64,000 nt of DNA from Gammaproteobacteria bacterium RIFCSPHIGHO2_12_FULL_39_24 (GCA_001802455.1 MGXZ01000020.1:32742-96741); one strand, 5' to 3'; positions 2,467-44,090 are shown, numbered from the stretch's first letter. Notes: generated from the letters alone by a model not told the origin. A program made the numbers and translations.

Positions 2467-2480
2467 TCATTGGTTAAAAA

Positions 2481-2605: not shown

Positions 2606-2620
2606 CATTAGACAATCTAT

Positions 2621-4051: not shown

Positions 4052-4053
4052 CG

Positions 4054-5133: not shown

Positions 5134-5147
5134 TGTTCGTCCTTTAT

Positions 5148-6754: not shown

Positions 6755-6793
6755 GCTGTTGGACGAAACCTACCATGATCAAAAACGAATGAA

Positions 6794-22001: not shown

Positions 22002-22981
22002 GATTCTGCAACAACGTGAGTGCCATTAAAATCAAAATTAAAACGCACTTCTGGAAAGTTTGCTTCGCGCATAATTTTTCGTAACTGTTGTTTATTCTTA
22101 GCATAAAATAGCAAGAAACCACCGCCACCCGCACCAATCATCTTTCCACCCAACGCGCCATTTTTTAGTGCGAGATCATACAAGTCATCAATATGCGCAT
22201 TGCTCATACTTTTTGACCGTTTCTTTTTATGCTGCCAATGTACATTCATTAAATCAGCAAATGTTTCTGCATCACCCTTTTCTAAAGCAGTTTTACTTTT
22301 CAAACCAATTTCTTTCACAAAATGCAAATTATCAATCATCTCTTGATTGTTATCTTTGCTTTTATCATCTTGCTCTTTCAAAATGGACGACGCTGAACGA
22401 GAATATCCGGTAAAAAATAATAGTAAATTTTCTTCCAAATCAAACAAGGTATCTTGATCCACTTTTAAAGGATAGGCATTCACTTGATTATCTTTCGTGA
22501 ATTCAAAACAAGTTAAACCACCATAAGCGGCAATGTATTGATCTTGTTTTCCAATCGGTTCGTTCAATAAATTCAGTTCAATGTGACACGCTTCTTCTGC
22601 TAATTGCTTGGCATCAACAAGACCTTTATGTAACGTGTGTAATGCTTTCAGTAAAGCAGTGGTAAAACTGCCCGATGATCCCAAACCGGTTCCTGCTGGA
22701 ATGTCTGCCATACTGGTAATTTCTAATTGGAGGGGATGCACATTAAGATAACGTAATGTTTCGCGAATCAGCGGATGTTTAATTTGATTAATTTCGCTAA
22801 CACGTTCTAGTTCTGAATATTTGATAATTAAATCGGGAAAAAATGTTTTATGTAACGTGATATACACATATTTATTAATCGCTGCCGCAATTAAAAAACC
22901 GGAGTGATTTTGATAATATGACGGTAAATCAGTTCCGCCACCTCCCAAAGAAATTCTAAGCGGGCTACGCACCACAATCAT
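21998..22981 (-). CDS. GHMP-family sugar kinase, HddA-like (second copy)
   Basis: 327-aa ORF with SPLRISLGGGGTDLPSYY and the GHMP motif IPAGTGLGSSGSF. Confidence 0.78.
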   Translation of the reverse strand: MIVVRSPLRISLGGGGTDLPSYYQNHSGFLIAAAINKYVYITLHKTFFPDLIIKYSELERVSEINQIKHPLIRETLRYLNVHPLQLEITSMADIPAGTGLGSSGSFTTALLKALHTLHKGLVDAKQLAEEACHIELNLLNEPIGKQDQYIAAYGGLTCFEFTKDNQVNAYPLKVDQDTLFDLEENLLLFFTGYSRSASSILKEQDDKSKDNNQEMIDNLHFVKEIGLKSKTALEKGDAETFADLMNVHWQHKKKRSKSMSNAHIDDLYDLALKNGALGGKMIGAGGGGFLLFYAKNKQQLRKIMREANFPEVRFNFDFNGTHVVAES

Positions 22982-23954
22982 AGTGTGAGTCCTTGTAAAT
23001 TTTATCTACTATCACGAGCGCTGCATGCGCATCACCTAAATTTGCTTCGGGCGTTTTATTATGCTTAATGTCATCAAGAAAATGGATAAATTCAACTTCC
23101 CAAGAATTGTCCGCTGTTGGATATTCCCATGAAAATGCTTCCGGTGGCCCCATTTCAGGAAGCATTTTATAAAAAGTGATGCGTTCGATACCATAACTGC
23201 CACCCAAACCATCGATCGCGATCTTACCATTCTTCCCGTAAATCTCAAATGAAAAAGTATTTTTCCATTCGGTACAACTGACATGCAAAAATGCCGTTTG
23301 TTTTTTTGCTGTTTGTAAAATTAAAAATGCATTGTCATCAACGGGCATATTCCAAAAATACGTATGCGCATGTCCAACAACATCCGTAAAATCACCTAAA
23401 AACCAACGCGCGAGATCGATGACATGTACACCTTGATCGATTAATTCACCGCCACCCGATAATACAGGATTGGCACGCCATTCTTTTTCATAACCCAGTC
23501 TGCCGCCGTGACCGTAGCGCGCGCGCAGAAACATCAGTTCACCCAACGCACCTTCATTAATCAGTTCTTTTGCTTTTTGCATGGCGCGATGATAACGATG
23601 ATTAAATCCAACGCGCACCAACACATTATTTTTTTTTGCAGCATGAATAATTGGATCTAACGCTTTCGCATTTTTGGCAGCAGGTTTTTCAACTAAAACA
23701 TGTTTTTTGGCGTTGATTGCGGCCAGTGTTATTTCAGGCAATAAATAATGCGGTGTCGCGATAATAACAATATTAATCTCAGGATCATTAATCACATCGT
23801 GCCAATTATTAGATGCAATACAATTGGAAAAGACGGCTGCGAGTTTTTCTGCTTTTTGAATATCGTGATCCACGCACCGTTTCAAAATGCATTCTTGTAA
23901 TAACTGTGCGCGTTTATTGCCGATTAATCCGCAACCAATAATTCCGATATTCAT
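22965..23954 (-). CDS. Gfo/Idh/MocA-family NAD(P)-dependent oxidoreductase
   Basis: 329-aa ORF with IGIIGCGLIGNKRA and a VLVEKPAA (EKP) motif. Confidence 0.85.
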   Translation of the reverse strand: MNIGIIGCGLIGNKRAQLLQECILKRCVDHDIQKAEKLAAVFSNCIASNNWHDVINDPEINIVIIATPHYLLPEITLAAINAKKHVLVEKPAAKNAKALDPIIHAAKKNNVLVRVGFNHRYHRAMQKAKELINEGALGELMFLRARYGHGGRLGYEKEWRANPVLSGGGELIDQGVHVIDLARWFLGDFTDVVGHAHTYFWNMPVDDNAFLILQTAKKQTAFLHVSCTEWKNTFSFEIYGKNGKIAIDGLGGSYGIERITFYKMLPEMGPPEAFSWEYPTADNSWEVEFIHFLDDIKHNKTPEANLGDAHAALVIVDKIYKDSHYDCGA

Positions 23955-24844
23955 TTTTCATCACCCCACGACAAATTGCGATCTGTCGGTACAATGCGTC
24001 GCAACGTATACACATCCGTTTTTTGTAAATCGGATAAATGCATTTGTAAATCTTTCCAAGGATCCCACACCGCGCTGATTAATTTTCCGGTGATGTTATC
24101 ACTTTCGCTCGAAGCAAGATAAACACATAATTCAGCACCTGTTTCTAACGGCGATCCACCCGTTTCTTTTTGCTTGAGCAATTGCTGATAAAATGCATGG
24201 CCAACAATATCGGAGCCTGCTGTCAATACGTCATCCAGTAAGCGTGTATTTAATGCGCCGGGTGCCACGGCATTCACATCAATGTGATCTGTTTTTAATT
24301 CTTCTGCCAGTGTTTCTGCAAAACGCACAATCGCTGCTTTTGATACTGCATACGCACTTAAATTGGGCATGGGTTTGGTAGCACCACCACCGGATAAAAT
24401 AATAATTTTACTGCGCTTGTTTTTTTTTAGATAAGGAATAGCTGCTTTGCAAGAAAACACCGTCCCTTTTAAATTAATATCAATGGCGGTTGACCATTCA
24501 TCCCAATTAATTGTTTCAATCGAACCTTTAGGTCCATGAATTCCCGCATTACAAACCAAAACAGAAATTTTTCCGGTGGATTGATTTGCTAAATGCATTA
24601 GTTTTTCAACATCAGCGATTTTTGAAATATCAGCTCGGCAAGAAATGATTTTTTTATGATGTGGATTACAATTTGATAATTCAGCAACAGCCTCATTTAA
24701 TTTTTTTTCATCGCGCGCGCAAATCGTAATATCAGCACCTTCTGCTAAAAATGCTTTGCTGATGGCCAATCCCAAACCTTGATTAGCGCCCGTAATAACA
24801 GCTGAAACAGTGGATAGTTTCATTTGCGCTGCTCCAAGATCCAC
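23951..24844 (-). CDS. Classical short-chain dehydrogenase/reductase
   Basis: 297-aa ORF with VITGANQGLGLAI and YAVSKAA. The likely start is the ATG at 24823, which forms an ATGA overlap with the upstream stop. Confidence 0.85.
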   Translation of the reverse strand: MDLGAAQMKLSTVSAVITGANQGLGLAISKAFLAEGADITICARDEKKLNEAVAELSNCNPHHKKIISCRADISKIADVEKLMHLANQSTGKISVLVCNAGIHGPKGSIETINWDEWSTAIDINLKGTVFSCKAAIPYLKKNKRSKIIILSGGGATKPMPNLSAYAVSKAAIVRFAETLAEELKTDHIDVNAVAPGALNTRLLDDVLTAGSDIVGHAFYQQLLKQKETGGSPLETGAELCVYLASSESDNITGKLISAVWDPWKDLQMHLSDLQKTDVYTLRRIVPTDRNLSWGDEK

Positions 24845-25776
24845 TGATTACTTTTTAAATATTCTAGTGTATTGATAACCGCTTCTTTGATGGTGAGTTT
24901 AGGTTTCCATCCCAATGCATTTATTTTCTTGGTATCCAGAAAAATAAACGGGTTATCACCAATCCAACCGCGGTCACCGCCAGAATAAATTTTTTCTGGC
25001 GTGAGTCCTAAATGATTACAAATCCAATCAATAGAATTATTCACTTCACAATACGCATCAACTCCTAAATTAAAAATATTGATGCGATCCTGTGCGTGTT
25101 GTATTGCAACTTGAATCGCATCTAAACAATCTTGAATATACAAATAGGATTTTCTTTGTTTGCCGTTACCCAATATGTGTAATTTATGTGGGTTTTGCAG
25201 TAATTGTTTATAGAAATCAAATACGTGGCCATGCGTATACCGCTCACCTAAAATAGACACAAATCGAAAAATCCAAGATTGAAAATTAAATCCTTCGCAA
25301 TAAGCCTGAATTAATCCTTCTGCCGCTAACTTTGACGCACCATATAATGACGTTTGAGTTGGAAATGCGGTTGTTTCAGGTGTTGGAAATTCTGTTGCTT
25401 CTCCATAAATTGAACCCGTTGATGCAAAGACAATTTTTTTAATATTGTTTTTTCGCATTGCTTCCAGCACATGATAAGTAGCAATCGTATTTTGTTGTAA
25501 ATCTTTTTCGGGATAATCTGTTCCAAATCGTACGTCTGCATTGGCAGCAAAATGTATTACAAAATCACACCCCTTCATCGTTTCTGTTAATGCGGGCAAA
25601 TTTAATAAATCATTTTCTACGAACATGAAATGAGAATTTTTTTGAGCGGATTCAAGAAAAGCGGGTAATCCTGTCGAAAAATTATCATAACCTACCACAT
25701 CATTTTTTTCATGCAGCAGTCGATCTACTAAAGAACTACCGATAAATCCTGCGCTGCCTGTGACAAAATACTTCAT
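24820..25776 (-). CDS. NAD-dependent nucleotide-sugar epimerase/dehydratase-family protein
   Basis: 318-aa ORF with FVTGSAGFIGSSL and YGASKLA (YxxxK). The context ASTGSIYG looks epimerase/reductase-like. Confidence 0.85.
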   Translation of the reverse strand: MKYFVTGSAGFIGSSLVDRLLHEKNDVVGYDNFSTGLPAFLESAQKNSHFMFVENDLLNLPALTETMKGCDFVIHFAANADVRFGTDYPEKDLQQNTIATYHVLEAMRKNNIKKIVFASTGSIYGEATEFPTPETTAFPTQTSLYGASKLAAEGLIQAYCEGFNFQSWIFRFVSILGERYTHGHVFDFYKQLLQNPHKLHILGNGKQRKSYLYIQDCLDAIQVAIQHAQDRINIFNLGVDAYCEVNNSIDWICNHLGLTPEKIYSGGDRGWIGDNPFIFLDTKKINALGWKPKLTIKEAVINTLEYLKSNQWILEQRK

Positions 25777-25786
25777 ATTATTTTTC

Positions 25787-26161
25787 TTATTTAAAAACCC
25801 AATATCTCGCCATCATATATCCAGACAACACAGTGACACCAATAGCAGAAACCATACCAAAATAAGGTGAACATTGTAATTCAGAAACAATGAAATACAC
25901 AATCGTCATGGTGATGACGTAATTTACCATTACCATCACAACATATTTTACAATGTGTTTTTGTAAATTCTTTCCATTCACAGCAAATGTGAAATATCGA
26001 TTCATAGTAAAATGGGTTATCACAGACATGATATAAGCAAAAGAAATGGCGAGTTGATAATGAACATGAAATCCCTGAAAAAATAATGCAAACACGCCAA
26101 AATAAACGGTTGCTGATAATCCACCAATCAGACAATAAAAAATAACAGGGTGCATTCTCAT
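25787..26161 (-). CDS. GtrA-family membrane protein
   Basis: 124-aa ORF with four hydrophobic helices. It has a 4-nt overlap with the upstream GT2 gene. Confidence 0.7.
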   Translation of the reverse strand: MRMHPVIFYCLIGGLSATVYFGVFALFFQGFHVHYQLAISFAYIMSVITHFTMNRYFTFAVNGKNLQKHIVKYVVMVMVNYVITMTIVYFIVSELQCSPYFGMVSAIGVTVLSGYMMARYWVFK

Positions 26162-27138
26162 GATTCTTTTTTTTCTGTGGTTTGAAAACCAATCATACGA
26201 TCAATAATAAATATCGGTCGCTTTTTGGCTTCATCATAAATGCGCCCGATATATTCACCCACCAACCCAAGACAAAGTAATTGCACACCGGAAAAAAAAG
26301 TGATGGCCAAGATGGTGGTGGATAATCCTGGTGATAATTTAAAACCAAATAATTTTTGAATAACGTACCAAAAACCAATAATAAAACTCAGCAAAGCGGT
26401 CGATGCGCCCAATACAGACATTAATTGCAGAGGACGACTACTGAAACCAATCAACCCATTCAAACCAATCTTAAGTGATCCAGTAAAACGGTTATAATGA
26501 CCCCTGCCTGAAAAACGTGAATCGCGATCATACTCTACTGCAGTTTGTTTAAATCCCACATACGCCACTAACCCCCTTAGAAATCCATGTGATTCATTTA
26601 ATTTTCTTAATTCCTCGATCACTCTGCGCGTCATAATACGAAAATCACCTGTGTTTCTCGGTATGGAAACATCCGCTAATGCATTAATCATTTTATATCC
26701 GATGTGAGATATCAAACGTTTAATAACCGTTTCCCCTTTTCGTGAACGACGCTGTGCATAAACTACTTCATATCCCTCATTTAATTTTTGATACAATGTA
26801 GAAATTAATTCAGGTGGATCTTGCAAATCAACATCGATGACAACACACGTTTTTCCACAACAATATAAAATACCTGCCATCGTTGCAGCGGGTTGCCCAA
26901 AACGTCTTGAAAATTCAATTAACTTGATGCGAGTATCGCGCTGAATTTCATTCTCAATAGCGCGTGTTGTATTATCGGGTGATGGATCCAATGAAAATAG
27001 TATCTCATAATGCGGCGTAATACTTTGTAGTACAGGTTCTAATCTATTCAAAAAGGGCTTAATGTTATTGGCTTCCTTGTAAACCGGCACAACAACAGAA
27101 ATGGTCGTGGGATGATTAAGCAGAGATTGACTTGACAT
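26158..27138 (-). CDS. GT2 polyprenyl-phosphate glycosyltransferase (GtrB/ArnC/DPM1 type)
   Basis: 326-aa ORF with VVVPVYKEANNI, DVDLQDPPELI and two C-terminal TM helices. Confidence 0.82.
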   Translation of the reverse strand: MSSQSLLNHPTTISVVVPVYKEANNIKPFLNRLEPVLQSITPHYEILFSLDPSPDNTTRAIENEIQRDTRIKLIEFSRRFGQPAATMAGILYCCGKTCVVIDVDLQDPPELISTLYQKLNEGYEVVYAQRRSRKGETVIKRLISHIGYKMINALADVSIPRNTGDFRIMTRRVIEELRKLNESHGFLRGLVAYVGFKQTAVEYDRDSRFSGRGHYNRFTGSLKIGLNGLIGFSSRPLQLMSVLGASTALLSFIIGFWYVIQKLFGFKLSPGLSTTILAITFFSGVQLLCLGLVGEYIGRIYDEAKKRPIFIIDRMIGFQTTEKKES

Positions 27139-28324
27139 AATTACCTCTCGATTCCATCACTTCCGCTTTACGTAACACATCATAAACACGCTGAATATCC
27201 GCGCGCATATCTCTCGGATGATTTCCCACAAAAAAACCACGATCATGTGCTAAATTCGCATTGGTCATTTCACCAACGCAAGAATGATCACAATATTTTA
27301 TCACATCATGACGCAAGAAATTGCCGCCCGTGATGATGCGATATTGAATATCGGCTGCTTTCATCGCTTGCATGATTTTTTTTCGATCCAAATTATAGTG
27401 TGGATTTAAAATAATCGTAAAAGCAAACCAAGAACTTTTTCCATTTTCTTTTTGAATGATAAAACGATCATCATTACCGAATAATGATTTAAATGTTTCT
27501 GCATTTTTTCGTCTGATTTCAATAAAATGATCTAATTTTTTTAATTGTTCAATACCAATCGCACCTGATAATTCTAATGGACGTACATTGTAGCCCGGTA
27601 AAATAAATCGATAGGCTTCATAAAAATCATCATCAGATGGTGTAAATATGGTTGAATCTGTTGGTAAATCACGCGTCCAACCATGTGCGCGCATGGCTCT
27701 GGCGATGTGATAAATTTCTTCGTCATCCGTCATCACCACACCCCCCTCCATCGTGGAAATATGGTGCGAGAAAAAAGTGCTGAACGTATTCACATCACCA
27801 AATGTGCCGCACTGTTTTCCATTTAATTCAGCACCCATCGATTCACAATTATCTTCCAATAAATATAAATGATGCTTGTCGCAAAATTTTCTCAATATAT
27901 CTAATTTTGCAGGGTTTCCTAAAATACTCACCGCAACGACCATACGTGTTTTTGGCGTGAGTGCTTGTTCTAATTTACCGACATCGATATTTAAACTATC
28001 TAATTCAACATCAATAAATTTTAATGTTAAACCATATTGCATAAGTGGATAATAAGTGGTTGCCCACGAAATGGAGGGCACAATCACTTCATCGCCCGGT
28101 TTTAGGGGAGAATCCGATTTATAAAATAATGCGGCAACCGCAATTAAATTCGCAGATGAGCCTGAGTTCACCATTAATGCATACTTTCCGCCGAATTTTT
28201 TTGCAAAATCCGCTTCAAATTGTTTAACGTATTTTCCCATTGTAAAAATGCCGCCACGAATCACTTCTTGCATGGCATTCACTTCTTCTGATCCCCAAGT
28301 ACTACTGGCTAATTCATAACCCAT
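27116..28324 (-). CDS. PLP-dependent nucleotide-sugar 4-keto-6-deoxy 3-dehydratase, ColD-like (DegT fold, His in place of the PLP lysine)
   Basis: 402-aa ORF that is near-colinear with my memory of E. coli ColD (LASSTW, FTMGKYVKQFEADFAKKFG, LPGYNVRPLELSGAIGIEQLKKL). Its active-site context FFSHHISTMEGG has His where aminotransferases have Lys. Confidence 0.75.
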   Translation of the reverse strand: MGYELASSTWGSEEVNAMQEVIRGGIFTMGKYVKQFEADFAKKFGGKYALMVNSGSSANLIAVAALFYKSDSPLKPGDEVIVPSISWATTYYPLMQYGLTLKFIDVELDSLNIDVGKLEQALTPKTRMVVAVSILGNPAKLDILRKFCDKHHLYLLEDNCESMGAELNGKQCGTFGDVNTFSTFFSHHISTMEGGVVMTDDEEIYHIARAMRAHGWTRDLPTDSTIFTPSDDDFYEAYRFILPGYNVRPLELSGAIGIEQLKKLDHFIEIRRKNAETFKSLFGNDDRFIIQKENGKSSWFAFTIILNPHYNLDRKKIMQAMKAADIQYRIITGGNFLRHDVIKYCDHSCVGEMTNANLAHDRGFFVGNHPRDMRADIQRVYDVLRKAEVMESRGNYVKSISA

Positions 28325-28344
28325 TATTTTTACCTTTACTTATT

Positions 28345-29388
28345 TTATGATTTTACTAATGACACAATGGCCTCTTTGGTCGATGCAACCGTGGGATAAT
28401 AAAATTGTTCTAAATCAGCGCCAGCCGGTGAAGGACAGGCTGGTAAACCCAACCGTTTTACAGGTGCTTTCAAAAATGAGAAACCTTTTTCAGCAGCAAT
28501 AAAACCAATTTCAGCACACACACCACCAACAGCCCAACCTGTATCCACCACCAACAAACGACCTGTTTTTTTAAGCGACTCTAAAATAATCGTTTCATCT
28601 AATGGTTGGATAGTGCGAAGGTCAATCACATCAGCGTGAATATTTTTTTCTTTTTCTAATTCATTTGCGGCCGTCATTGCCAAATCGATTGCTTGTGATG
28701 CGCCTACAATAGTGACATCATTTCCGCGTCGACGATAAACACCTTTGCCCAATGGAATTTCATACGCTTCCGTTGGCACAACACCGGTTCTCTTCATCAA
28801 CCAACGATGCTCAATAATAATAGCGGGATTATTATCATTAATTGCCGAAATCATTAATCCTTTGACGTCATATGGTGTACTCGGCATCACAATTTTTAAA
28901 CCGGGAACACCTAACAATAAACCTTGAATCGCTTGTGAATGTTGCGGACCTGATCCCCACCCTCTTCCAATCGCAGCCCAAATTACCAGTGGTACGGAAT
29001 GTTGTCCGTTGTCCATCCAATGAATTTTTGATGCGTGATTGACTAATTGATTAAACGTTAATAATAAAAAATCAGGACGATTATGAAAATAAACAGGACG
29101 CATGCCTGTCATTGCAGCGCCGACACAAATTCCCGTCATCCCTTCTTCAGAAACCGGTGTATCAAAAACACGTGCAGCGCCATACATTTCTTTAAAACCT
29201 TTTGTGACACCAAACATGCCGCCTGGATCATCAACACCTTGACCCAATAAAAAAACTTTTTTGTCTTCATCCATTTTGTATGACAATGCTTCGCGAATCG
29301 CTTCAACGCTGCCGATCACACGACCATCCTGATTTACCGGGTCTTTTTGTTCGGCATTCGCAACCACTAATTTTTCATCCCACAACAT
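28345..29388 (-). CDS. ThDP-dependent 2-oxoacid dehydrogenase E1 component, beta-subunit-like
   Basis: 347-aa ORF with transketolase-like pyrimidine-binding and C-terminal domains (FDTPVSEEGMTGICVGAAMTGMRPV). Confidence 0.85.
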   Translation of the reverse strand: MLWDEKLVVANAEQKDPVNQDGRVIGSVEAIREALSYKMDEDKKVFLLGQGVDDPGGMFGVTKGFKEMYGAARVFDTPVSEEGMTGICVGAAMTGMRPVYFHNRPDFLLLTFNQLVNHASKIHWMDNGQHSVPLVIWAAIGRGWGSGPQHSQAIQGLLLGVPGLKIVMPSTPYDVKGLMISAINDNNPAIIIEHRWLMKRTGVVPTEAYEIPLGKGVYRRRGNDVTIVGASQAIDLAMTAANELEKEKNIHADVIDLRTIQPLDETIILESLKKTGRLLVVDTGWAVGGVCAEIGFIAAEKGFSFLKAPVKRLGLPACPSPAGADLEQFYYPTVASTKEAIVSLVKS

Positions 29389-29399
29389 GCGGCATTCCT

Positions 29400-30428
29400 C
29401 TAATCACAATAAACATAATTCATCAAATCATCTCGCGTTGGATGCGGACTTTGTTCCGCAAACGCGAAGGCTTTATTTATTTCTGCAGTGATTTGTTGTC
29501 TCAATTCTTCAACCTCTGATAATGGCAAAGAAAAATCTTCAATCAATACTTGTTGTAATAATGCAACGGGGTCTTTTGTTTTCCAATGCGCTAATTCTTC
29601 TGGTGTGCGATAACCCATATCTTCTTCTGAACCATGATGTCCGCGCCAACGATACGTAATGGCTTCAATAAAAGCAGGGCCAGAGCCATTATTGACATAA
29701 TCCAGCGCACGTTGCATCGCCTCATAAACAGCTAATACATTATTTCCATCAATGCATTCACTTTTTAATCCAAAGCTTTCTGCTTTTTTATAAATTCGAA
29801 TGTTGTCAGGTTGACGATAATGCAGTGGCGAACAAACAGAATAAAAATTATTTTCACAAAAATAAATCATCGGTAATTTGCGAACCGCCGCAAAATTCAT
29901 GCTTTCCCATGCCACTCCTTCTTCAACGCCCGCATCACCGGTGTACACGACTGTCTTGCGATGATTATTTTGCATTTGCGCTGATAATGAAAAACCCGTT
30001 GCAATGGGAATAGCGCCTGCAACAATCGCAGAAGAGCCCATCATACCAACAGACTTATCCATCAAGTGCATTGATCCACCACGAGAAGCAGTGCAACCTG
30101 TCATGCGACAATAAAACTCAGCAATCATTGCATTCAGATCACCGCCTTTTGCTAAATAAGCGCCATGTGTGCGATGACTGCAATAAATATAATCATCTTT
30201 GGTCAATAACGCACAACTTCCGACCACAGTGGCTTCTTGTCCAATCACCAGGTGAATGGGAGTTTTCATTTTATCTTCGTGATATCGTGCTGCAACGGTT
30301 TCTTCAATTAATCGAATGCGAAACATTTTGTAAAATAAATCCAACAAAAATGTTCGCGGATATTTTTTTGCTAATAATTTTAATGACGCAATGCCTTCGC
30401 CGTCATAGGGATATCGGATCATGGCCAT
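29400..30428 (-). CDS. ThDP-dependent 2-oxoacid dehydrogenase E1 component, alpha-subunit-like
   Basis: 342-aa ORF with the ThDP motif GDAGVEEGVAWESMNFAAVRKLPMIYFCENN. Confidence 0.85.
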   Translation of the reverse strand: MAMIRYPYDGEGIASLKLLAKKYPRTFLLDLFYKMFRIRLIEETVAARYHEDKMKTPIHLVIGQEATVVGSCALLTKDDYIYCSHRTHGAYLAKGGDLNAMIAEFYCRMTGCTASRGGSMHLMDKSVGMMGSSAIVAGAIPIATGFSLSAQMQNNHRKTVVYTGDAGVEEGVAWESMNFAAVRKLPMIYFCENNFYSVCSPLHYRQPDNIRIYKKAESFGLKSECIDGNNVLAVYEAMQRALDYVNNGSGPAFIEAITYRWRGHHGSEEDMGYRTPEELAHWKTKDPVALLQQVLIEDFSLPLSEVEELRQQITAEINKAFAFAEQSPHPTRDDLMNYVYCD

Positions 30429-30451
30429 TTTTTCCTTTATTTACACCATTT

Positions 30452-31399
30452 TTAATTTTTTTCAATCACTCGCTTTTCTGAAAAAAACCATTCATATGTT
30501 TTCTTAATTCCATCGCGAATAGCGATAGTGGGTTTCCATCCGAGTTCAGTTATTTTTTTGCTGTCTAATAATTTTTGCAACACACCATCTGGTTTTGATG
30601 TGTCCCACACAATTTCACCTCCAAAACCCACTGTTTCTGCAATCATGGTGGCAAGTTCACGAATAGACCAATCCATTCCAACACCCACATTCAGTGGCGC
30701 AGATGTTTCATCGCAACTTAAAACATGTATTACAGCACGCGCAATGTCATCCGCATGCACAAATTCACGACGCGGTGTTCCTGTTCCCCACAAAATAAGT
30801 TTGCTGAGATTTTTTTCTTTTGCGTCGTGCATTTTTGCCATCATCGCCGACATCACATGTCCCGCGTTAGGATCAAAATTATCAAATGGGCCGTAAGCAC
30901 TGTTTGGAATTAACGCGATAAAACGCTGTGTTTGATATTGCTGATTGTATGCATGACACAGTTGCACGCCCGCGAGTTTTGACATCGCGTAACTCATACT
31001 CGTCGCTTCTGGTTTTCCCGTCAACAATAAGTCTTCACTCATCGGCTGCACGCATTCACGCGGATACATGCAAGATGATCCAAAAAAAATAAGTTTATTC
31101 ACTTCAGCTTTTTGCGCTGCTTGAAACACGTTGAGTTGAATAGCGAGGTTGGTATTAATAAAATCAGCGGGCTTGGTTTTATTATAAAAAATACCGCCGA
31201 CCATTCCTGCTGCCAAAATAACGAATTGGGGTTTTATTTTTTCAACATACTGACTGACTGCGCTCGTATTCAATAAATTTAATTCAGCGCGCGTCGGATA
31301 ATGTAGGCGAGAAAACCCCAGCTCTTTAAGGTAACGCAAACAAGCTGAACCAATAAGACCTGTCGCACCCAGAATAAGAACTGAAGCTTCTCTGTCCAT
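30452..31399 (-). CDS. GDP-L-fucose synthase-like 3,5-epimerase/4-reductase (Fcl/WcaG family)
   Basis: 315-aa ORF with LILGATGLIGSA, GSSCMYP, YAMSKLAG and LWGTGTPRREFVHADD, closely paralleling Fcl. Confidence 0.8.
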   Translation of the reverse strand: MDREASVLILGATGLIGSACLRYLKELGFSRLHYPTRAELNLLNTSAVSQYVEKIKPQFVILAAGMVGGIFYNKTKPADFINTNLAIQLNVFQAAQKAEVNKLIFFGSSCMYPRECVQPMSEDLLLTGKPEATSMSYAMSKLAGVQLCHAYNQQYQTQRFIALIPNSAYGPFDNFDPNAGHVMSAMMAKMHDAKEKNLSKLILWGTGTPRREFVHADDIARAVIHVLSCDETSAPLNVGVGMDWSIRELATMIAETVGFGGEIVWDTSKPDGVLQKLLDSKKITELGWKPTIAIRDGIKKTYEWFFSEKRVIEKN

Positions 31400-32905
31400 T
31401 TACACAACCACTGCATTTGCTTCTTCAATCAATTGGCGACGCAATTTAATTTTCGTCATATCGGCAACATGATCATGCACGGCTTGTCCAAATTTTCTTT
31501 TCACCAACGCTAAATAGTTGGGATTAGTAAAATAACGATGGAAGGCGTTGTCACGGAATTTTAAAATTTCTGATGCAGGCAATGCTTCCGAACGCAATGG
31601 TTTGCTTTCGTATGCGTGTTGCGAATAACCAATCCACGAATCAGGCAATGCCCATTTTTTCTCGAGCGCGAGATCGTACAATTTCGATCCCGGATAAGCC
31701 ATCGCACAATAAAAATTAGCAAATTCACAATTCGCTTCAATGGCTAAATCCAATGTTTCATTCATCGATTCGGTCGTATCGTCGGGCAATCCAAAAATAT
31801 AATTACCAATAACATAAATACCAGCAGCTTGAATTTTGCGAACCACTTTGATGATGTCTTCACTGCCAAAACGACCTTTTTCAACACCATCACGCACATG
31901 CTTGCTGCCTGATTCGATACCGAGCGCCAACCAACGAATGCCGGCTGCACGCAATTTTTCTAAAAATTCATCTTTAACGGTATCCACGCGCGCATAGGCC
32001 CAAATATTTAAATCATAATTACGCTCAATTAATAAATCACAAATGCCAATGACATGATTTCTTTTTAAAACAAACATTTCATCAACAAATTTAATATTTT
32101 TAATGCCATACTCATTTACCAGCACATCAATTTCTTCCACCACTGTTTTGGGAGACCACATCCGATAAGAAGATTTTCCAAAGGGTGCATTAATGCAGCA
32201 AAATGTGCATTTGTAAGGACATCCTAAACTAGTATGGATCGATGCGTACGGTTGACGATCATTAATGTGATCGAAGCAATGCCAATTATGCGCGCGATAT
32301 TTATCCATTGGTAATAAATCCCACGCACCGCCCGGCATATCCGCATCTAAATTATCTAACAACAGTCCTTTTGGTGTAGACAACGCAACACCGCCGCGTT
32401 TGTACCACAAACTGGGCACCGCACTAAAATCAGTAGAGCCTGCTTTTAAAGCTTGAAATGTTTGCCAAATGGTTTGTGGACCTTCCTGACTGCACACAAA
32501 ATCAATTTGTTCTTCATTTAATGTTCTCGCCGGCAATGCAGCAGGATGCGTTCCCGTCATCATGATTTTGCATTGCGGCGATAATTGTTTTAGCGCAGTA
32601 CACGTTTCGCTGGCTGCCATCATGTTTTGTGTTGAAGCGGAAGGTTGAAAACCGTACACCACCATCACAATTAAAGTGGCATCATAATTATCCGCAATAT
32701 ACTTTGCTGTCATTGCAGGACTAAAATGACGAATTGGCGCATCAACAATATCGACTGTGCCGCCTTTTACGCGAACGTAAGTTGCAAACAGTGCTGCCAA
32801 AGAAGGGGGTTCGAACGCCGAAAATTCACTACTTAATTCTTGATATATCGCTGCTGGTGAGCCCGGATTAACTAACAGTACATCCACTTTTTGTTTGCCG
32901 CTCAT
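31400..32905 (-). CDS. B12-binding-domain radical SAM enzyme (class B, methyltransferase-like)
   Basis: 501-aa ORF with an N-terminal Rossmann-like cobalamin-binding region followed by GCPYKCTFCC (CxxxCxxC). Confidence 0.8.
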   Translation of the reverse strand: MSGKQKVDVLLVNPGSPAAIYQELSSEFSAFEPPSLAALFATYVRVKGGTVDIVDAPIRHFSPAMTAKYIADNYDATLIVMVVYGFQPSASTQNMMAASETCTALKQLSPQCKIMMTGTHPAALPARTLNEEQIDFVCSQEGPQTIWQTFQALKAGSTDFSAVPSLWYKRGGVALSTPKGLLLDNLDADMPGGAWDLLPMDKYRAHNWHCFDHINDRQPYASIHTSLGCPYKCTFCCINAPFGKSSYRMWSPKTVVEEIDVLVNEYGIKNIKFVDEMFVLKRNHVIGICDLLIERNYDLNIWAYARVDTVKDEFLEKLRAAGIRWLALGIESGSKHVRDGVEKGRFGSEDIIKVVRKIQAAGIYVIGNYIFGLPDDTTESMNETLDLAIEANCEFANFYCAMAYPGSKLYDLALEKKWALPDSWIGYSQHAYESKPLRSEALPASEILKFRDNAFHRYFTNPNYLALVKRKFGQAVHDHVADMTKIKLRRQLIEEANAVVV

Positions 32906-32921
32906 TTTCCTGTTCTCCTAA

Positions 32922-33866
32922 TCAAACATTTCCATAGACACTGTTTTTAATCATGGTAAATCCTTTTATTAATTCACGGATACCTTCTTCAATAGTGGTG
33001 TGCGGCTTAAATCCCGTTTTTTCTATTTTTTCATTCGAGACAATATAATTACGCTGATCAGGATCTTTACCCACCGTTGCTTCTACAAAAACAAAATCAG
33101 GAATAAATTGCTGTATTTTTTCACACAATTCTTTTTTGGATATATTGGCTTCTGATAAACCGACATTGTAAATCTGACCTTTCACGCGATCATGATTGGT
33201 AATCATGTGTAAAAATGCGCGCGCAACATCTCGAACATGCACATAGTTTCTTTTAAAGTGACCTTCAAACAACAAAACATATTTGTCGTACACAGCACGA
33301 TAAGTAAAATCGTTCACGAGCAAATCCGTACGCATGCGTGGCGAAATACCAAACACGGTTGCCAAACGCAAACTCACCGCATTCGGATGTTTCATTAATT
33401 CTTTTTCTACTTTTACTTTTTCTTGCGCGTAGTGCGAAATGGGATTGAGTGGAGATTCTTCTGTGCAAAAATTATTTTTATCACCAGAACCATAAGCACT
33501 GTTCGTTGTTGGCATATAAATTTTTTGCTCGCAGCTCATCAAATTGAGCATCATGATTATCGCATCGTAATTCACTGTCGTTGCTGTAATGGGATCTTGA
33601 TTGCACAATGGCGCACCGACCAACGCGGCCAACGGAATAACAATATCTGCTTTTTTTAAATAGGGTTGAATGGTTTCTTTAACACGAATATCGCCTTTAA
33701 CAATGTGAAAATTTTTGTAACGACACACAGCAGCAAGACTGTTTTGTTTGTACATGAAGTTGTCGATAACAGTGACTTCGTGTCCCAACTGTACTAATTC
33801 AGGCACTAAAGTTGAACCAATATAGCCTGCGCCACCGGTTACCACGATATTGTATTTTTTATCCAT
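32922..33866 (-). CDS. NAD-dependent nucleotide-sugar epimerase/reductase (extended SDR)
   Basis: 314-aa ORF with VVTGGAGYIGS and YAQEK. It is the first gene of the long minus-strand run 33866..~16817. Confidence 0.85.
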   Translation of the reverse strand: MDKKYNIVVTGGAGYIGSTLVPELVQLGHEVTVIDNFMYKQNSLAAVCRYKNFHIVKGDIRVKETIQPYLKKADIVIPLAALVGAPLCNQDPITATTVNYDAIIMMLNLMSCEQKIYMPTTNSAYGSGDKNNFCTEESPLNPISHYAQEKVKVEKELMKHPNAVSLRLATVFGISPRMRTDLLVNDFTYRAVYDKYVLLFEGHFKRNYVHVRDVARAFLHMITNHDRVKGQIYNVGLSEANISKKELCEKIQQFIPDFVFVEATVGKDPDQRNYIVSNEKIEKTGFKPHTTIEEGIRELIKGFTMIKNSVYGNV

Positions 33867-34024: not shown

Positions 34025-36151
34025 ATGGATACCGTCAACAAAAATATTTTCTGTAAACAGTATGATTTGTTTCTCAATATTACGCTCTTGCTGTTATTGC
34101 TTTTTCTCACCGTAAAAATGAATTGTATTCCGGCGCATGATACTTTTTGGCAATATCAGTCATTTTTTGTTTTTTACAACCATTTTTATTTTTACAAAAC
34201 CATACTACAGTGGTTCCCTTATGGCTCATATGGCATACCAGCAATGCCGTTCAACTTGATGTCAATAACACCCGCTCTTTACTTAATAACATTTGTTGGA
34301 AAAGTCTTGGATGTGACAAACACATTACTTTTATTTGAAATGGGTATTTATATTGAAATTTTTATTTATTTTATTGGATTATATTTTCTGTTGATAGAAC
34401 TCAATGTCAGCAAGTCGATTCGTTTTATTGTTTTACTCTCAGCGCTCTCAACTACCGCATGGCAATGGCAAATTGGATTTATGCTCAATATTTTTTACTT
34501 GATTCCACTTATTTTATTTTGTTTTATTAGATTGGATAAAACAAAACAAATAAGGTGGTTATATTATTCTGGTTATATTTTCTTAATTAACATTATCGGT
34601 ATAGCAACTTATTTAATACTCATTCAATTTTATACACTGTTTTTCTTTTTTATTGGGCTGTTAATCACAAATCGTGCTTTATCTAAAACAGTATTTTCAA
34701 CTGCTATTTTTAAAACGAAATATTTTGCGCTGCTCATTATAATGTTGATTCCTTTTATCACCATGGCGCATTTCATCACACATGATTTGATTGATCTGAC
34801 ACCCGGCAGAATACATGGTTACAATACAGTGGATACCTTTATCCATTATGCTTTTCAACCCATTGGTAATGTCGTTTATGGATATCTGACTGGCAATATT
34901 TCACTCTCAGATAATACGTACTATATCGGACTTTTTTTATTAGCCGCTTTTATTTACGGAATTTTTTATTGCGACAATAAATACTTTCGAGCATTTTTAT
35001 TACCAATCATTTTTTTAATATGGCTTTCGATATCCGGTATTTTTGCACACATTGTTTATTTTTTTCCAGGAATGAAATACTATCGCCACATTGATCTCAC
35101 ATTCGGCATCACCAGTTGTTTAATGATCATTAGCGCGGCGATTATCATACAAAATATTGTTAATGATCATACGCGTCGTTTTGTGTGTCCGACATTTTTT
35201 ATTATAATATTTACGTTAATGATTGTTGATTTTTTAGTAAGTCACTTTGTCCTACACACTATTCCAACATTTCATTCTACTGTCCCCATAAAAATACTCA
35301 CTACAAAATTTAATCTTTATCAGCTTTTTTTCTGTATGCGAATTATTTTTTATTCAACATTTATTTTTTTTGCAGCACGCTCGCAACGACCCATTTGGAT
35401 TATCTTATTTTCTATTGCTATTTTTGATGTGATGAGCTACCAATTTCTACAACTATACGATATCAAACACAACTATTTTACAGCGACAAAAACAATCACC
35501 ACGGCTGAGAAAATAAAATATCAACCCAAACGAAGCGATACTGTTAAAAACATGACGCCGAATCAACTGGAACGTTGGAACTTATCGACCAACATGGCTT
35601 CTGTTAAAAATTCGTTGGATGATAATTCTGCAGTTTATTCCCAATCTACTTATTTATTTGCTTCATCAGACCCGTGTCATCCCAAATACCGAGTTGATTT
35701 ATTATCACCATCGATTGCACCGCTTTTTCAACAAATCAATCATGGGCACGGAACTAACAACCTGCTCAATATCATTGGCTGCCACTCATCAAAATTATTT
35801 TTAAATGGACTGCCGCTGTTTACGTTTCAATTAAATCACTTTAGTGGTGACACCGTTTCTTTTACCGTTGAAAATAAAAGTGATCGATCTCAACTGTTAA
35901 CCTATGCTGATGCTCAATATCCAGGTTGGACGGTATTTATTGATGGGCAACAAAAAAAACTGATGACAACACAGCATGGATTCAAAGCAGTCGTACTGTC
36001 ACCGGGGGTGCATACAGTATATTTTGAATATGCAAATTTACTTTATTTAATTTTATCGTGGTTTTTAGCGGGCGCCTCATTGTTATTTTTTCTCTCACTC
36101 ATTATGTCGCTATCAGTGTTTTTATCAAAATTAATTCGCTCTGCCACATAA
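34025..36151 (+). CDS. YfhO-like polytopic GT-C glycosyltransferase (second copy)
   Basis: 708-aa ORF with many TM helices. A C-terminal soluble segment carries YPGWTVFIDGQQKKLMTTQHGFKAVVLSPGVHTVYFEY and is followed by a terminal TM helix. Confidence 0.65.
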   Translation: MDTVNKNIFCKQYDLFLNITLLLLLLFLTVKMNCIPAHDTFWQYQSFFVFYNHFYFYKTILQWFPYGSYGIPAMPFNLMSITPALYLITFVGKVLDVTNTLLLFEMGIYIEIFIYFIGLYFLLIELNVSKSIRFIVLLSALSTTAWQWQIGFMLNIFYLIPLILFCFIRLDKTKQIRWLYYSGYIFLINIIGIATYLILIQFYTLFFFFIGLLITNRALSKTVFSTAIFKTKYFALLIIMLIPFITMAHFITHDLIDLTPGRIHGYNTVDTFIHYAFQPIGNVVYGYLTGNISLSDNTYYIGLFLLAAFIYGIFYCDNKYFRAFLLPIIFLIWLSISGIFAHIVYFFPGMKYYRHIDLTFGITSCLMIISAAIIIQNIVNDHTRRFVCPTFFIIIFTLMIVDFLVSHFVLHTIPTFHSTVPIKILTTKFNLYQLFFCMRIIFYSTFIFFAARSQRPIWIILFSIAIFDVMSYQFLQLYDIKHNYFTATKTITTAEKIKYQPKRSDTVKNMTPNQLERWNLSTNMASVKNSLDDNSAVYSQSTYLFASSDPCHPKYRVDLLSPSIAPLFQQINHGHGTNNLLNIIGCHSSKLFLNGLPLFTFQLNHFSGDTVSFTVENKSDRSQLLTYADAQYPGWTVFIDGQQKKLMTTQHGFKAVVLSPGVHTVYFEYANLLYLILSWFLAGASLLFFLSLIMSLSVFLSKLIRSAT

Positions 36152-37053
36152 ACCAAAGGGCGCTTCAGAATTTGCGTGTGAATACTGGCAACATATTCAC
36201 CGATGATTCCAAGAAAAAATAACAATATTGAAAAAAAGAAAAATAACGCGATCATAATGGGTGCGATACCCGCATAAAAATGATTCCAAAAAATAAGTTT
36301 TAAAATAAATAATGCAGCAGCACAAAACAGGCTAAATACAGATAAAAAAAGTCCTAGCATCGTTGCTAATCGGATCGGCACTTTTGAGTGACTCGTAAAC
36401 CCCAGTATCGCCCAATCAAAAAGAATATAAAAATTGGCTTTCGAAGCACCGCGTTTTCTAAGTGGTTGCAAAAAAGGAATTTCTTTAATTGGATAACCAA
36501 TCTCTGAAATAATTCCTCTGAAATAGGGATACGAATCACCCAGCTCTTTGATCGCATGAATAACTGTTTTGTCATATAAACCAAAGCCGGTGAAATTTTT
36601 AACGAGTTTTATATTCGCAATTTTATTGGCAAGCCAGTAATATAATTTTCTCACTCTAGCCATCAAAAAACCTTCTTGGGTTTTTGCTTTTGTCGCAACA
36701 ACAATTTTCCAACCCGCCTCCCACGCTGTCAAAAAATCCTTAATCAGTTCTGGCGGATCTTGTAAATCACACACAATCGAAATAACCACATCCCCTTTTG
36801 CCTGAAAATAACCATACACAGGTGAACGCACAGGACCAAAGTTTCTAGTATTAACAATAATTTTCACATTATTATCTTGTGCTGCGATTCTTTTTAAAAT
36901 AGAAACGGTTTTATCTTCAGAACAGTTATCAATAAAAATATGCTCATAATGATATTGCGGTAATTCAGAAAATATTTTTTTCACCTGCTCATATAGATCA
37001 GCAGCATTTTCTTCTTCGTTATAACAAGGCGTCACCACAGAGATCAGCTTCAT
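36043..37053 (-). CDS. GT2 polyprenyl-phosphate glycosyltransferase (GtrB/ArnC/DPM1 type), second copy
   Basis: 336-aa ORF with VVTPCYNEEENA, VCDLQDPPELI and two C-terminal TM helices. Its hydrophilic tail overlaps the convergent GT-C gene by 109 nt. Confidence 0.82.
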   Translation of the reverse strand: MKLISVVTPCYNEEENAADLYEQVKKIFSELPQYHYEHIFIDNCSEDKTVSILKRIAAQDNNVKIIVNTRNFGPVRSPVYGYFQAKGDVVISIVCDLQDPPELIKDFLTAWEAGWKIVVATKAKTQEGFLMARVRKLYYWLANKIANIKLVKNFTGFGLYDKTVIHAIKELGDSYPYFRGIISEIGYPIKEIPFLQPLRKRGASKANFYILFDWAILGFTSHSKVPIRLATMLGLFLSVFSLFCAAALFILKLIFWNHFYAGIAPIMIALFFFFSILLFFLGIIGEYVASIHTQILKRPLVYVAERINFDKNTDSDIMSERKNNNEAPAKNHDKIK

Positions 37054-37409
37054 AATACGTTCCTAAAAACAAAATGTTTATTCGCATAATAACTCGCGAA
37101 CGCCAATAGCACGATCGCTATTCCGCCATCAAGATAAAGATCAGAAATAAAATCATGCAACAAATGTATTATTCCGATGTTCAAAAAATACAGCACTAAA
37201 TACAAAAAACAAAATCGTAAAAAAAAATTGTCATTTTTAAAAACAAGTCTGCTGATGGTAAAAAAGTTAAAAATCACACCCAGTACCGTTGAACCCAGCG
37301 CTGCGAAGAGATAGGAGATGTTCAAAAAAACAAGAGCGCTAAAGATTGCGTACCCAAAAAGCGTGTTCAGGCCACCCACTAACAAAAAACGAATAAATCG
37401 AGCATTCAT
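37050..37409 (-). CDS. GtrA-family membrane protein
   Basis: 119-aa ORF starting MNARFIRFLLVGGLNTLFGYAIF (typical GtrA N-terminus), with four hydrophobic helices. It has 4-nt overlaps on both sides. Confidence 0.75.
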   Translation of the reverse strand: MNARFIRFLLVGGLNTLFGYAIFSALVFLNISYLFAALGSTVLGVIFNFFTISRLVFKNDNFFLRFCFLYLVLYFLNIGIIHLLHDFISDLYLDGGIAIVLLAFASYYANKHFVFRNVL

Positions 37410-39184: not shown

Positions 39185-39198
39185 CTTTATTTCCTACA

Positions 39199-40098: not shown

Positions 40099-40104
40099 AT
40101 TTTT

Positions 40105-40911: not shown

Positions 40912-40915
40912 ATTG

Positions 40916-42139: not shown

Positions 42140-42142
42140 TGC

Positions 42143-43213: not shown

Positions 43214-43233
43214 ATTCAGCTACTCACGTTGGA

Positions 43234-44043: not shown

Positions 44044-44090
44044 GAAAAAACTTCCTATGAAAATCACAACCCATTGAGAAATAAGCAGGC

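Follow-up and report, generated by a model that had tools for sequence, protein, structure and literature searches.

Two-subunit thiamine diphosphate (ThDP) enzymes of the αKADH2 (E1αβ) type branch keto sugars with pyruvate (PMC4753412; PMC12247030). According to a 2025 review, these enzymes and the transketolase-type branchers are found mainly in antibiotic pathways, and the YerE-like enzymes in the making of lipopolysaccharide (LPS) (PMC12247030). Another known enzyme, Cj1427, oxidizes GDP-D-glycero-α-D-manno-heptose at C4 without 6-deoxygenation, using tightly bound NADH that is recycled by α-ketoglutarate. Together with a ColD-type C3-dehydratase, it produces GDP-D-glycero-4-keto-3-deoxy-heptose in vitro, and the addition of C4-reductases leads on to GDP-3-deoxy-heptoses (PMC10680097). 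Here we describe a run of eight consecutive minus-strand genes at positions 25787–33866 of a 64,000-nucleotide stretch (hereafter, the window) from Gammaproteobacteria bacterium RIFCSPHIGHO2_12_FULL_39_24. In our judgment these genes are probably, with appreciable room for doubt, one copy of a widespread cassette that turns a GDP-heptose into a 3-deoxy sugar bearing a two-carbon branch, which is altered further by a radical S-adenosylmethionine (SAM) enzyme and, at this locus, delivered on a lipid carrier. Such a cassette does not fit the division of ThDP branchers between antibiotics and LPS drawn in the review.

The run encodes, in order, an extended short-chain dehydrogenase/reductase (SDR), a class-B radical SAM enzyme, an Fcl-like epimerase/reductase, the α and β subunits of an E1-type ThDP enzyme, a ColD-type DegT-family protein, a GtrB-like family 2 glycosyltransferase (GT2) and a GtrA-family protein. 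The open reading frame (ORF) listing agrees with a first-pass annotation of this DNA in the order and boundaries of the genes and in all three motifs quoted there. Adjacent genes are spaced by only −25 to +23 nucleotides, which gives the run an operon-like packing, and the stop codon of the radical SAM gene directly abuts the start codon of the Fcl-like gene. The run makes up the first, upstream eight genes of a 16-gene array on the minus strand extending from 33866 down to 16817, which continues past 25787 with a GalE-like SDR and ends with a 906-amino-acid polytopic protein. Identical eight-gene order is found in independent assemblies of the locus (NCBI, ENA, Logan and JGI), and because the order recurs in this way, with its core shared by dozens of unrelated genomes, the arrangement lies far beyond chance. 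A promoter and terminator scan of the locus returned fewer sites than shuffled controls and no noteworthy internal terminator. An Rfam scan gave no match, hence no B12, SAM or thiamine pyrophosphate riboswitch.

The extended SDR that heads the array (32922–33866, minus strand, 314 amino acids) matches PDB entries 6VO6 and 6VO8 at 376 bits over its full length (residues 6–313 against 4–311 of 6VO6). SDR dehydratases acting as 4,6-dehydratases carry a T(D/S)E acid/base signature; the present protein reads PTTNSAYG, and the acidic pair of the 4,6-dehydratases is not there. We take 6VO6 and 6VO8 to be Cj1427, on the ground that the Cj1427 structure paper is cited in PMC10680097. The protein is thereby a close homolog of Cj1427 and is predicted to be a GDP-heptose C4-dehydrogenase of that type.

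Removal of the 3-hydroxyl would fall to the DegT-family protein (27116–28324, minus strand, 402 amino acids; containing FFSHHISTMEGG), which scores 269 bits against Pfam DegT and 448 bits against E. coli ColD (2gms and 3gr9, residues 2–384), to which it is ∼60% identical. The first histidine of its SHHI motif aligns on ColD His188, the catalytic residue that replaces the Schiff-base lysine, at a position marked by the H188N and H188K mutant entries. Histidine occupies this position in all nine of the cassette DegT proteins that were aligned, two from the window and seven from related loci, and it is kept even in three of the latter that are only 32% identical to ColD. Because every aligned version has it, the cassette DegT proteins are best read as dehydratases, not aminotransferases. 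The score against 2gms and the retained catalytic position confirm the ColD-type identity first assigned to this protein, which is predicted to be a pyridoxamine phosphate-dependent GDP-4-keto-sugar 3-dehydratase. Enzymes of this type use PLP/PMP together with glutamate.

The second extended SDR of the array, the GalE-like protein (24820–25776, minus strand; 287 bits to PDB 3EHE), is a predicted epimerase or reductase. Its motif, STGSIYGE, lacks the dehydratase Asp/Glu, so that it too is unlikely to be a 4,6-dehydratase; no GDP-heptose 4,6-dehydratase was found in the eight-gene module, and no Gmd in the array. O6 is therefore probably retained, since the module has a C4-dehydrogenase in place of a 4,6-dehydratase and the second extended SDR is without the dehydratase residues. 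Of the 3,6-dideoxy sugar originally envisaged, the 3-deoxy part is supported by the ColD-type enzyme with its histidine and the 6-deoxy part is not, and a 3-deoxy sugar that keeps O6 is the more likely product.

The E1 pair lies in the middle of the run. E1α (29400–30428, minus strand, 342 amino acids) scores 216 bits against Pfam E1_dh, and its ThDP/Mg motif (GDAGVEEG...CENN) aligns with that of human pyruvate dehydrogenase (PDH) E1α. E1β (28345–29388, minus strand, 347 amino acids) has the Pfam domains Transket_pyr and Transketolase_C. Searches of every window ORF of 150 amino acids or more revealed no lipoyl, 2-oxoacid_dh or dihydrolipoamide-dehydrogenase domain, so the pair is free-standing, without E2 or E3, as had been noted from the start. 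By analogy with the antibiotic branchers, E1α would be of the αKADH2 type, and we propose the pair as the enzyme that donates a C2 branch.

The radical SAM protein (31400–32905, minus strand, 501 amino acids; containing SLGCPYKCTFCC) combines the Pfam Radical_SAM domain with a B12-binding domain that scores 35.4 bits, above the cut-off of 32.1. These domains and the top Foldseek matches establish the class-B fold recognized at first reading. In an alignment of 24 members drawn from the closest matches and spanning several phyla, the mean column identity is ∼70%; the C229-X3-C233-X2-C236 motif is invariant, as are C237 and C289. The family comprises more than 8000 database clusters, many of them 70%–80% identical across beta- and gammaproteobacteria and beyond. 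Its top NCBIfam matches, HpnJ at 177 bits (TIGR03471, cut-off 578) and BchE at 131 bits, are full-length, and are followed by assorted methylases and AprD4, all far below their cut-offs; AprD4 is also the top sequence match in the PDB. No hopanoid genes lie near the radical SAM gene, and neither score nor context makes the protein an HpnJ. It appears instead to belong to an unnamed, very conserved family that has no curated model of its own. An AlphaFold model (mean confidence score, pLDDT, of 72) matched TsrM, AprD4, OxsB, MgmA, CysS and TokK about equally well in Foldseek, and thus the predicted fold could not separate a methylase from a non-methylase.

Relatives of this protein occur in 565 genomes in a scan that took one genome per species. 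Carriers include Herbaspirillum lusitanum, Simkania, Omnitrophota, Bdellovibrionales, Rhodospirillaceae and Niveibacterium, along with Legionella maceachernii and a Coxiella-like tick endosymbiont; the module is not specific to Coxiella or the Legionellales. Co-occurrence was counted in 34 complete loci, those with at least 9 kb on either side of the radical SAM gene. A ThDP enzyme is encoded in 32 of them, as an E1αβ pair (21 loci), a split transketolase (nine) or a half-size E1-like pair (two). The Cj1427-like C4-dehydrogenase and a GHMP kinase are each present in 32 loci as well, a DegT-family gene and a nucleotidyltransferase in 31 each. The Fcl-like gene is an accessory part of the cassette, present in 11 of the 34 loci; a GtrB-like GT2 is found in four, and GtrA in none, which makes the Gtr-type carrier route rare outside the present locus. 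A strict tblastn search had raised the possibility that the radical SAM gene is independent of the ThDP enzyme; this was rejected when relaxed searches showed that the ThDP enzyme of the loci without E1αβ is a split transketolase or else a pair of half-size E1 proteins.

Several loci show the cassette in compact form. Leptospirillum ferriphilum has an eight-gene version with transposases on its flanks. Seven-gene versions have no Fcl-like gene, and some have no separate reductase of any kind; NUDIX and Wzm/Wzt genes follow, the latter indicating a polysaccharide that depends on an ATP-binding cassette (ABC) transporter. The NUDIX hydrolase gene follows the cassette in loci L059 (17500–20095) and L006 and on plasmid AZO_p6 of Azospirillum lipoferum 4B (L087), with Wzm/Wzt in L059. 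A plasmid search recovered only the Azospirillum and Solidesulfovibrio copies, at 46%–56% identity, and a literature search on the LPS of Herbaspirillum lusitanum returned nothing useful. Overall, the sugar-nucleotide core is a mobile cassette, conserved and spread horizontally across many phyla.

The radical SAM gene of L. maceachernii ATCC 35300 (L015, 3287–12418), whose product is 74% identical, lies outside any heptose cassette. It is followed by genes for an MTAP-like phosphorylase, a class II aldolase, a phosphoribosyltransferase, an MtnA-like isomerase and a SAM synthetase, and the block is adjoined by an integrase and a transposase, giving it the look of a mobile island of radical SAM enzyme plus SAM recycling. 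The LPS of L. maceachernii reportedly contains yersiniose A.

The Fcl-like protein (30452–31399, minus strand, 315 amino acids) scores 282 bits against E. coli GDP-L-fucose synthase (1bsv) and 366 bits against the NCBIfam model GDPFucSynFcl, below the equivalog cut-off of 500. Its catalytic set is complete (C110, Y137, K141 and H181, equivalent to E. coli C109, Y136, K140 and H179), in agreement with the initial assignment, and there is a His-to-Phe change at the position of E. coli H170. By analogy with ColC, the enzyme could epimerize C5 and reduce C4.

A heptose origin, also suggested in the first-pass annotation, is supported by the Cj1427-like SDR and, more weakly, by genes further down the array, all on the minus strand. 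An HddA-like GHMP sugar kinase (21998–22981), an HddC/MurU-like sugar-1-phosphate nucleotidyltransferase (21279–22001) and a GmhA-like SIS-domain isomerase (20467–21141; Pfam SIS_2) have HddA, HddC and GmhA among their top NCBIfam matches at 181, 96 and 53 bits, against cut-offs of 600, 300 and 209, respectively; we note that MurU outscores HddC for the nucleotidyltransferase. The GmhA/HddA/GmhB/HddC set is thus assigned by top match and context, not at equivalog level. A transaldolase (19521–20273) scores 337 bits against TIGR02134, above the cut-off of 282. Two further oxidoreductases lie between these genes and the GalE-like SDR. One is a classical SDR (23951–24844; Pfam adh_short, 164 bits), with FabG-like and acetoin-reductase-like NCBIfam matches, which is confined to this locus type among the loci surveyed and is a candidate branch ketoreductase. 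The other, identified by family searches, is a GFO/IDH/MocA protein (22965–23954), a predicted sugar dehydrogenase or ketoreductase.

The GT2 (26158–27138, minus strand, 326 amino acids; Pfam Glycos_transf_2) has full-length NCBIfam matches to PgfS (242 bits) and ArnC (147 bits), both below cut-off, and ends in two C-terminal transmembrane (TM) segments; it is a predicted polyprenyl-phosphate glycosyltransferase. Its gene overlaps by 4 nucleotides with that of the small GtrA-family membrane protein (25787–26161, minus strand, 124 amino acids; Pfam GtrA_DPMS_TM, 67.5 bits), a putative flippase of the lipid-linked sugar. The 906-amino-acid protein encoded by the final gene of the array (16817–19537, minus strand), which overlaps the transaldolase gene by 17 nucleotides, has 17 TM-like segments in a crude hydropathy scan. 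Sixteen of these fall within the first ∼620 residues and the last near residue 873, leaving a soluble C-terminal domain between them. A weak C-terminal match to YfhO (E = 1.3e-4, 21 bits, below cut-off) makes it a YfhO-like candidate for a periplasmic glycosyltransferase. A second YfhO-like GT-C membrane protein (34025–36151, Pfam YfhO E = 2e-6, 26.9 bits, below cut-off) has 12 TM-like segments and is encoded divergently, on the plus strand, between the two Gtr modules of the window; BLASTP of both YfhO-like proteins against each other gave no significant similarity. The GT2 with its two C-terminal TM segments, GtrA and the YfhO-like polytopic proteins lend support to the idea, already put forward for this run, that the sugar is delivered on a lipid carrier.

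These assignments can be arranged into a pathway. Transaldolase would supply sedoheptulose 7-phosphate. Isomerization by the SIS protein, phosphorylation by the HddA-like kinase and nucleotidyl transfer by the HddC-like enzyme would turn this into GDP-D-glycero-α-D-manno-heptose, with a GmhB-type phosphatase contributed from elsewhere in the genome. The Cj1427-like SDR would then oxidize C4, leaving O6 in place, and the ColD-type enzyme, with His in place of Lys, would remove the 3-hydroxyl. The expected product, GDP-3-deoxy-4-keto-heptose, is predicted here from homology to Campylobacter proteins that carry out the reaction in vitro. E1αβ could decarboxylate pyruvate and add the hydroxyethyl-ThDP carbanion to the C4 ketone, leaving a tertiary alcohol with a 4-C-acetyl branch; similar steps have been proposed for AviB1/B2 and Pau11/12, and KbDH-α/β acts in vitro on ketone analogs (PMC4753412; PMC12247030). 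The radical SAM enzyme would next alter this scaffold, most plausibly at the heptose side chain or the branch, by C-methylation or by closing a C–C ring, and the Fcl-like, GalE-like, classical SDR and GFO enzymes would set its stereochemistry and redox state. By analogy with Gtr-type systems, the GtrB-like GT2 may load the finished sugar onto undecaprenyl phosphate, GtrA may flip it, and a YfhO-like polytopic protein may transfer it, on the periplasmic side, to LPS or some other glycan of the cell surface. Conservation follows the middle of this scheme: C4 oxidation, 3-dehydration, branching and radical SAM modification make up the mobile cassette, and the Gtr link is rare outside this locus. 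Of the earlier interpretation as a whole, 3-deoxygenation, a free-standing E1αβ pair, a heptose origin and a lipid carrier are supported, and 3,6-dideoxygenation and a fixed C-methylation are not.

The E1 pair could also be read as the E1 component of a metabolic pyruvate or acetoin dehydrogenase whose E2 and E3 partners have their genes elsewhere. The two subunits do belong to that sequence family, scoring 298 bits against PDH_E1_alph_y and 288 bits against PDH E1β in NCBIfam, and homologs bear database names such as “acetoin:DCPIP oxidoreductase.” However, both scores lie below the curated cut-offs (394 and 321, respectively), the 64 kb hold no E2 or E3, and the pair sits between sugar-nucleotide genes at gaps of 11–23 nucleotides, an embedding repeated in Leptospirillum, Simkania, Omnitrophota and Bdellovibrionales. 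Elsewhere a split transketolase takes its place, which is sensible only for C2 transfer onto a sugar; because an unrelated ThDP enzyme can replace the pair in this way, that transfer appears integral to the cassette, and we regard a metabolic role as very improbable. In one locus of the split-transketolase type (L074, 13321–14253), a D-2-hydroxyacid dehydrogenase gene adjoins the transketolase and possibly supplies hydroxypyruvate. A plain colitose-like pathway would use the ColD-type and Fcl-like (ColC-like) enzymes to make GDP-3-deoxy-L-heptose, with E1αβ and the radical SAM enzyme employed otherwise or present as loose neighbors. It would account for the close identity to ColD and the intact Fcl catalytic residues, and the in vitro route from Cj1427 through a C3-dehydratase and C4-reductases offers a precedent (PMC10680097). 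Yet the Fcl-like gene is the least conserved member of the cassette and is dispensed with altogether in the seven-gene versions, whereas the ThDP and radical SAM enzymes are near-universal partners of ColD and the C4-dehydrogenase; the genes are, moreover, translationally packed in one array. We therefore hold this pathway to be improbable, if less so than a metabolic E1. The branched-heptose cassette that we prefer faces difficulties of its own. Because the scores of the kinase, nucleotidyltransferase and isomerase fall far short of the HddA, HddC and GmhA cut-offs, the starting sugar could instead be a heptose analog or an octose, and no GmhB-type (HAD) phosphatase was found in the window. 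The Fcl-like enzyme appears equipped to reduce the 4-keto group and would compete with branching at C4, a position that follows solely from the site at which the ketone would form. The YfhO-like assignments rest on sub-threshold matches and topology, and as GtrA is missing from the complete related loci, the carrier route cannot be generalized.

Within the branched-heptose cassette, the reaction of the radical SAM enzyme admits more than one proposal, and we leave the larger share of the probability to other or unknown chemistry. C-methylation, which the first-pass annotation had expected, stands as one option on the strength of the class-B fold but is not favored by the closest curated families, HpnJ and BchE, which are not methylases. 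In this proposal the enzyme would methylate an unactivated carbon of the branched heptose, giving an acyclic C10 branched deoxy sugar; the site might be C7, as for Fom3 and GenK on hydroxymethyl or hydroxyalkyl carbons, or the C2 branch. Methylation is the default for class-B enzymes with a B12-binding domain, and TsrM, MgmA, CysS and TokK among the structural neighbors are methylases. Genes for 5′-deoxyadenosine salvage and MetK beside the L. maceachernii homolog fit heavy stoichiometric use of SAM, as does a salvage pair at 12673–14336 of the window, and methylated ThDP-derived branches occur in everninomicin (PMC12247030). Against this, AprD4 is likewise a non-methylase, the predicted product matches no known glycan sugar, and the tight tie of the radical SAM gene to ThDP enzymes of any type goes unexplained; methylation is thus possible but doubtful. 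Indeed, AprD4, OxsB, BchE and HpnJ illustrate that the class-B fold does not imply methylation, and HpnJ and BchE are associated with the formation of five-membered carbocycles. HpnJ is also treated in PMC9092360, where the biosynthetic origin of caryose is stated as unknown. A more specific form of the branched-heptose explanation, one that fixes the radical SAM step, would have the enzyme abstract a hydrogen from C7 of a 4-C-acetyl GDP-3-deoxy-heptose scaffold and join C7 to the branch carbonyl C8, closing a cyclopentane to give a 4,8-cyclo-3,9-dideoxy-nonose, that is, caryose or a stereoisomer. The branch added at C4 by the ThDP enzyme might, in this unlikely scheme, be acetyl or hydroxyacetyl. 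Its attraction is the mapping of structure onto genes. The 3-deoxy position would correspond to ColD, the retained O6 to a C4-dehydrogenase instead of a 4,6-dehydratase, C8 and the 9-methyl C9 to the pyruvate-derived acetyl of E1αβ, and the nine-carbon skeleton to heptose genes plus a C2 branch. The radical SAM gene is almost never without a ThDP enzyme (32 of the 34 loci), its closest curated relatives are those tied to carbocycles, and minimal seven-gene cassettes without a separate ketoreductase fit consumption of the ketone by ring closure. Radical addition onto a ketone carbonyl would, however, be unusual chemistry, most characterized class-B enzymes are methylases, and the likeness to HpnJ, at 177 bits, is distant. 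The L. maceachernii salvage and MetK genes suggest a stoichiometric use of SAM that a redox-neutral isomerization does not strictly need. Trinickia (Burkholderia) caryophylli, the only known producer, was looked for among the radical SAM and E1α homologs, including a search seeded with a Burkholderiales protein, and was absent from the best 80 of the 565 genome matches and the best 120 protein matches, which is not conclusive. We place ring closure below methylation and regard it as unlikely. A related candidate, erwiniose (3,6,8-trideoxy-4-C-hydroxyethyl-octose, from a heptose by C7 methylation and a C2 branch), was rejected on the ground that ErwE, a YerE-like enzyme acting on CDP-3,6-dideoxy-4-keto-glucose with 4-hydroxy-2-oxopentanoate, accounts for that sugar (PMC9306805).

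The remainder of the window is also rich in sugar genes. A first branched-sugar module on the minus strand (36043–44067) encodes a nucleotidyltransferase, a 4,6-dehydratase, a DegT protein with the motif SHVIS, whose His falls on ColD His188, the two halves of a split transketolase (TktN and TktC), a DegT-GNAT fusion, GtrA and a GT2, with rmlC and rmlD beyond. Its logic parallels that of the eight-gene run, and the window therefore contains a pair of ThDP-dependent sugar modules, both of them equipped with a GtrA and a GtrB. About 2.5 kb past the end of the array at 16817, overlapping minus-strand genes encode an MtnA-like IF-2B isomerase (12673–13686) and a class II aldolase (13683–14336). 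This pair looks like the isomerase and aldolase of a 5′-deoxyadenosine/5-deoxyribose (dihydroxyacetone phosphate shunt) salvage route and may reflect heavy radical SAM turnover. The ORFs at 14333–15949 and 15899–16864 had no family match in searches of the window ORFs. On the plus strand, 8565–12671 encodes a 1368-amino-acid protein that has a single TM-like segment, at its N-terminus, and matches Big_9, LVIVD and cadherin-like families only weakly; it is probably a large protein, secreted or on the cell surface, whose gene interrupts the glycan region. Minus-strand genes at 222–7507 encode a flavin amine-oxidase-like protein, an SDR epimerase, a UbiA-family prenyltransferase (476 amino acids), a second HddA-like GHMP kinase, an ABC transporter ATPase with a permease-like ORF of five TM segments, and a nucleotidyltransferase. 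To us, the trio of UbiA, flavin oxidase and SDR is reminiscent of polyprenyl-phospho-pentose (DPA-like) pathways.

In Coxiella, the literature bears out a statement in the first-pass annotation that E1-like genes lie in the O-antigen region. Their published interpretation is fatty-acid metabolism, and the E1 homologs have been read as the E1 of a metabolic pyruvate or acetoin dehydrogenase (PMC5423948); the proposed virenose C-methylase of Coxiella is TylCIII-like and not a radical SAM enzyme (PMC3539893). Strain 580 of a Coxiella-like endosymbiont (L064, 9041–13452) carries a decaying copy of the cassette in which the C4-dehydrogenase (311 amino acids) and radical SAM (499 amino acids) genes are intact, while fragmentation has left the GHMP kinase gene as three ORFs and the Fcl-like gene as two. 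This copy may correspond to the “pseudogenised CBU_0688 orthologues” of PMC13252051. The branched-heptose cassette offers a hypothesis both for the “pyruvate dehydrogenase” genes in the LPS region of Coxiella burnetii and for the decayed endosymbiont copy.

More broadly, the cassette would bring E1αβ and split-transketolase branchers into surface-glycan biosynthesis, in company with a radical SAM family found in at least 565 species of many phyla. It would amount to a compact pathway of seven to eight genes to an undescribed higher-carbon branched sugar, in which a radical SAM enzyme would act on a nucleotide sugar in a new way, and it makes the biosynthesis of caryose a directly testable question. 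Should ring closure prove correct, carbocyclic nonoses, known from one plant pathogen, would turn out to be common on the surfaces of hundreds of species, among them Legionellales, Coxiella-like endosymbionts, Simkania, Leptospirillum and Herbaspirillum, and radical SAM enzymes would have a new type of reaction on nucleotide sugars.

Among known systems, the capsule heptose pathway of Campylobacter jejuni shares the likely entry through GDP-D-glycero-α-D-manno-heptose, the Cj1427 oxidation, a His-type 3-dehydratase and an Fcl-like SDR. The Campylobacter loci, however, have neither a ThDP enzyme nor a radical SAM enzyme. Their 3-dehydratase (HS:5) naturally follows a 4,6-dehydratase and leads to a 3,6-dideoxy sugar, whereas here it is paired with a C4-dehydrogenase, and their products enter the capsule through cytoplasmic transferases in place of a Gtr-type lipid carrier. 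The αKADH2 branchers of actinomycete antibiotics (AviB1/AviB2 of avilamycin, Pau11/Pau12 of paulomycin, the aldgamycin pair and KbDH-α/β of kibdelomycin) resemble the present pair in being a two-subunit E1 without E2 or E3, encoded next to keto-sugar enzymes, and in placing a pyruvate-derived acetyl group on a sugar ketone to form a tertiary alcohol (PMC4753412; PMC12247030). They differ in acting on TDP-deoxyhexoses in Gram-positive secondary metabolism, in contrast to the GDP-heptose and surface glycan predicted here for a Gram-negative organism and many other phyla. The cassette pair, in addition, is always accompanied by a B12-radical SAM enzyme, and the likeness drawn here to AviB1 and KbDH is one of enzyme type. 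The yersiniose enzymes YerE/YerF, ErwE and MMAR_2332 share the logic of a 4-keto intermediate, 3-deoxygenation, ThDP-dependent branching at C4 and an LPS-bound sugar (PMC9306805). YerE-like enzymes are nevertheless single-chain flavoproteins of the decarboxylase superfamily that act on CDP-3,6-dideoxy-4-keto-glucose. Their pathway also requires a 4,6-dehydratase and an E1/E3 dehydrase system, and the eight-gene module contains no member of this set. With the Gtr, ArnC-ArnT and CsbB-YfhO systems, the locus has in common a GtrB-like GT2 with C-terminal TM segments, GtrA, a polytopic YfhO-like candidate and, by analogy, a sugar that would travel on undecaprenyl phosphate and be handed to its acceptor outside the cytoplasm. 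Known systems of this kind carry common sugars (Glc, GlcNAc, L-Ara4N), whereas here the carrier genes lie inside the operon for an exotic branched sugar and the GT-C assignment is sub-threshold. HpnJ and BchE are set apart by their substrates, hopanoid glucosamine and Mg-protoporphyrin ester, and by scores far below their family cut-offs. We describe the finding as a variant of nucleotide-sugar branching, in which a mobile cassette, probably acting on GDP-heptose, unites a C4-dehydrogenase, a 3-dehydratase, a ThDP enzyme and a B12-radical SAM enzyme.

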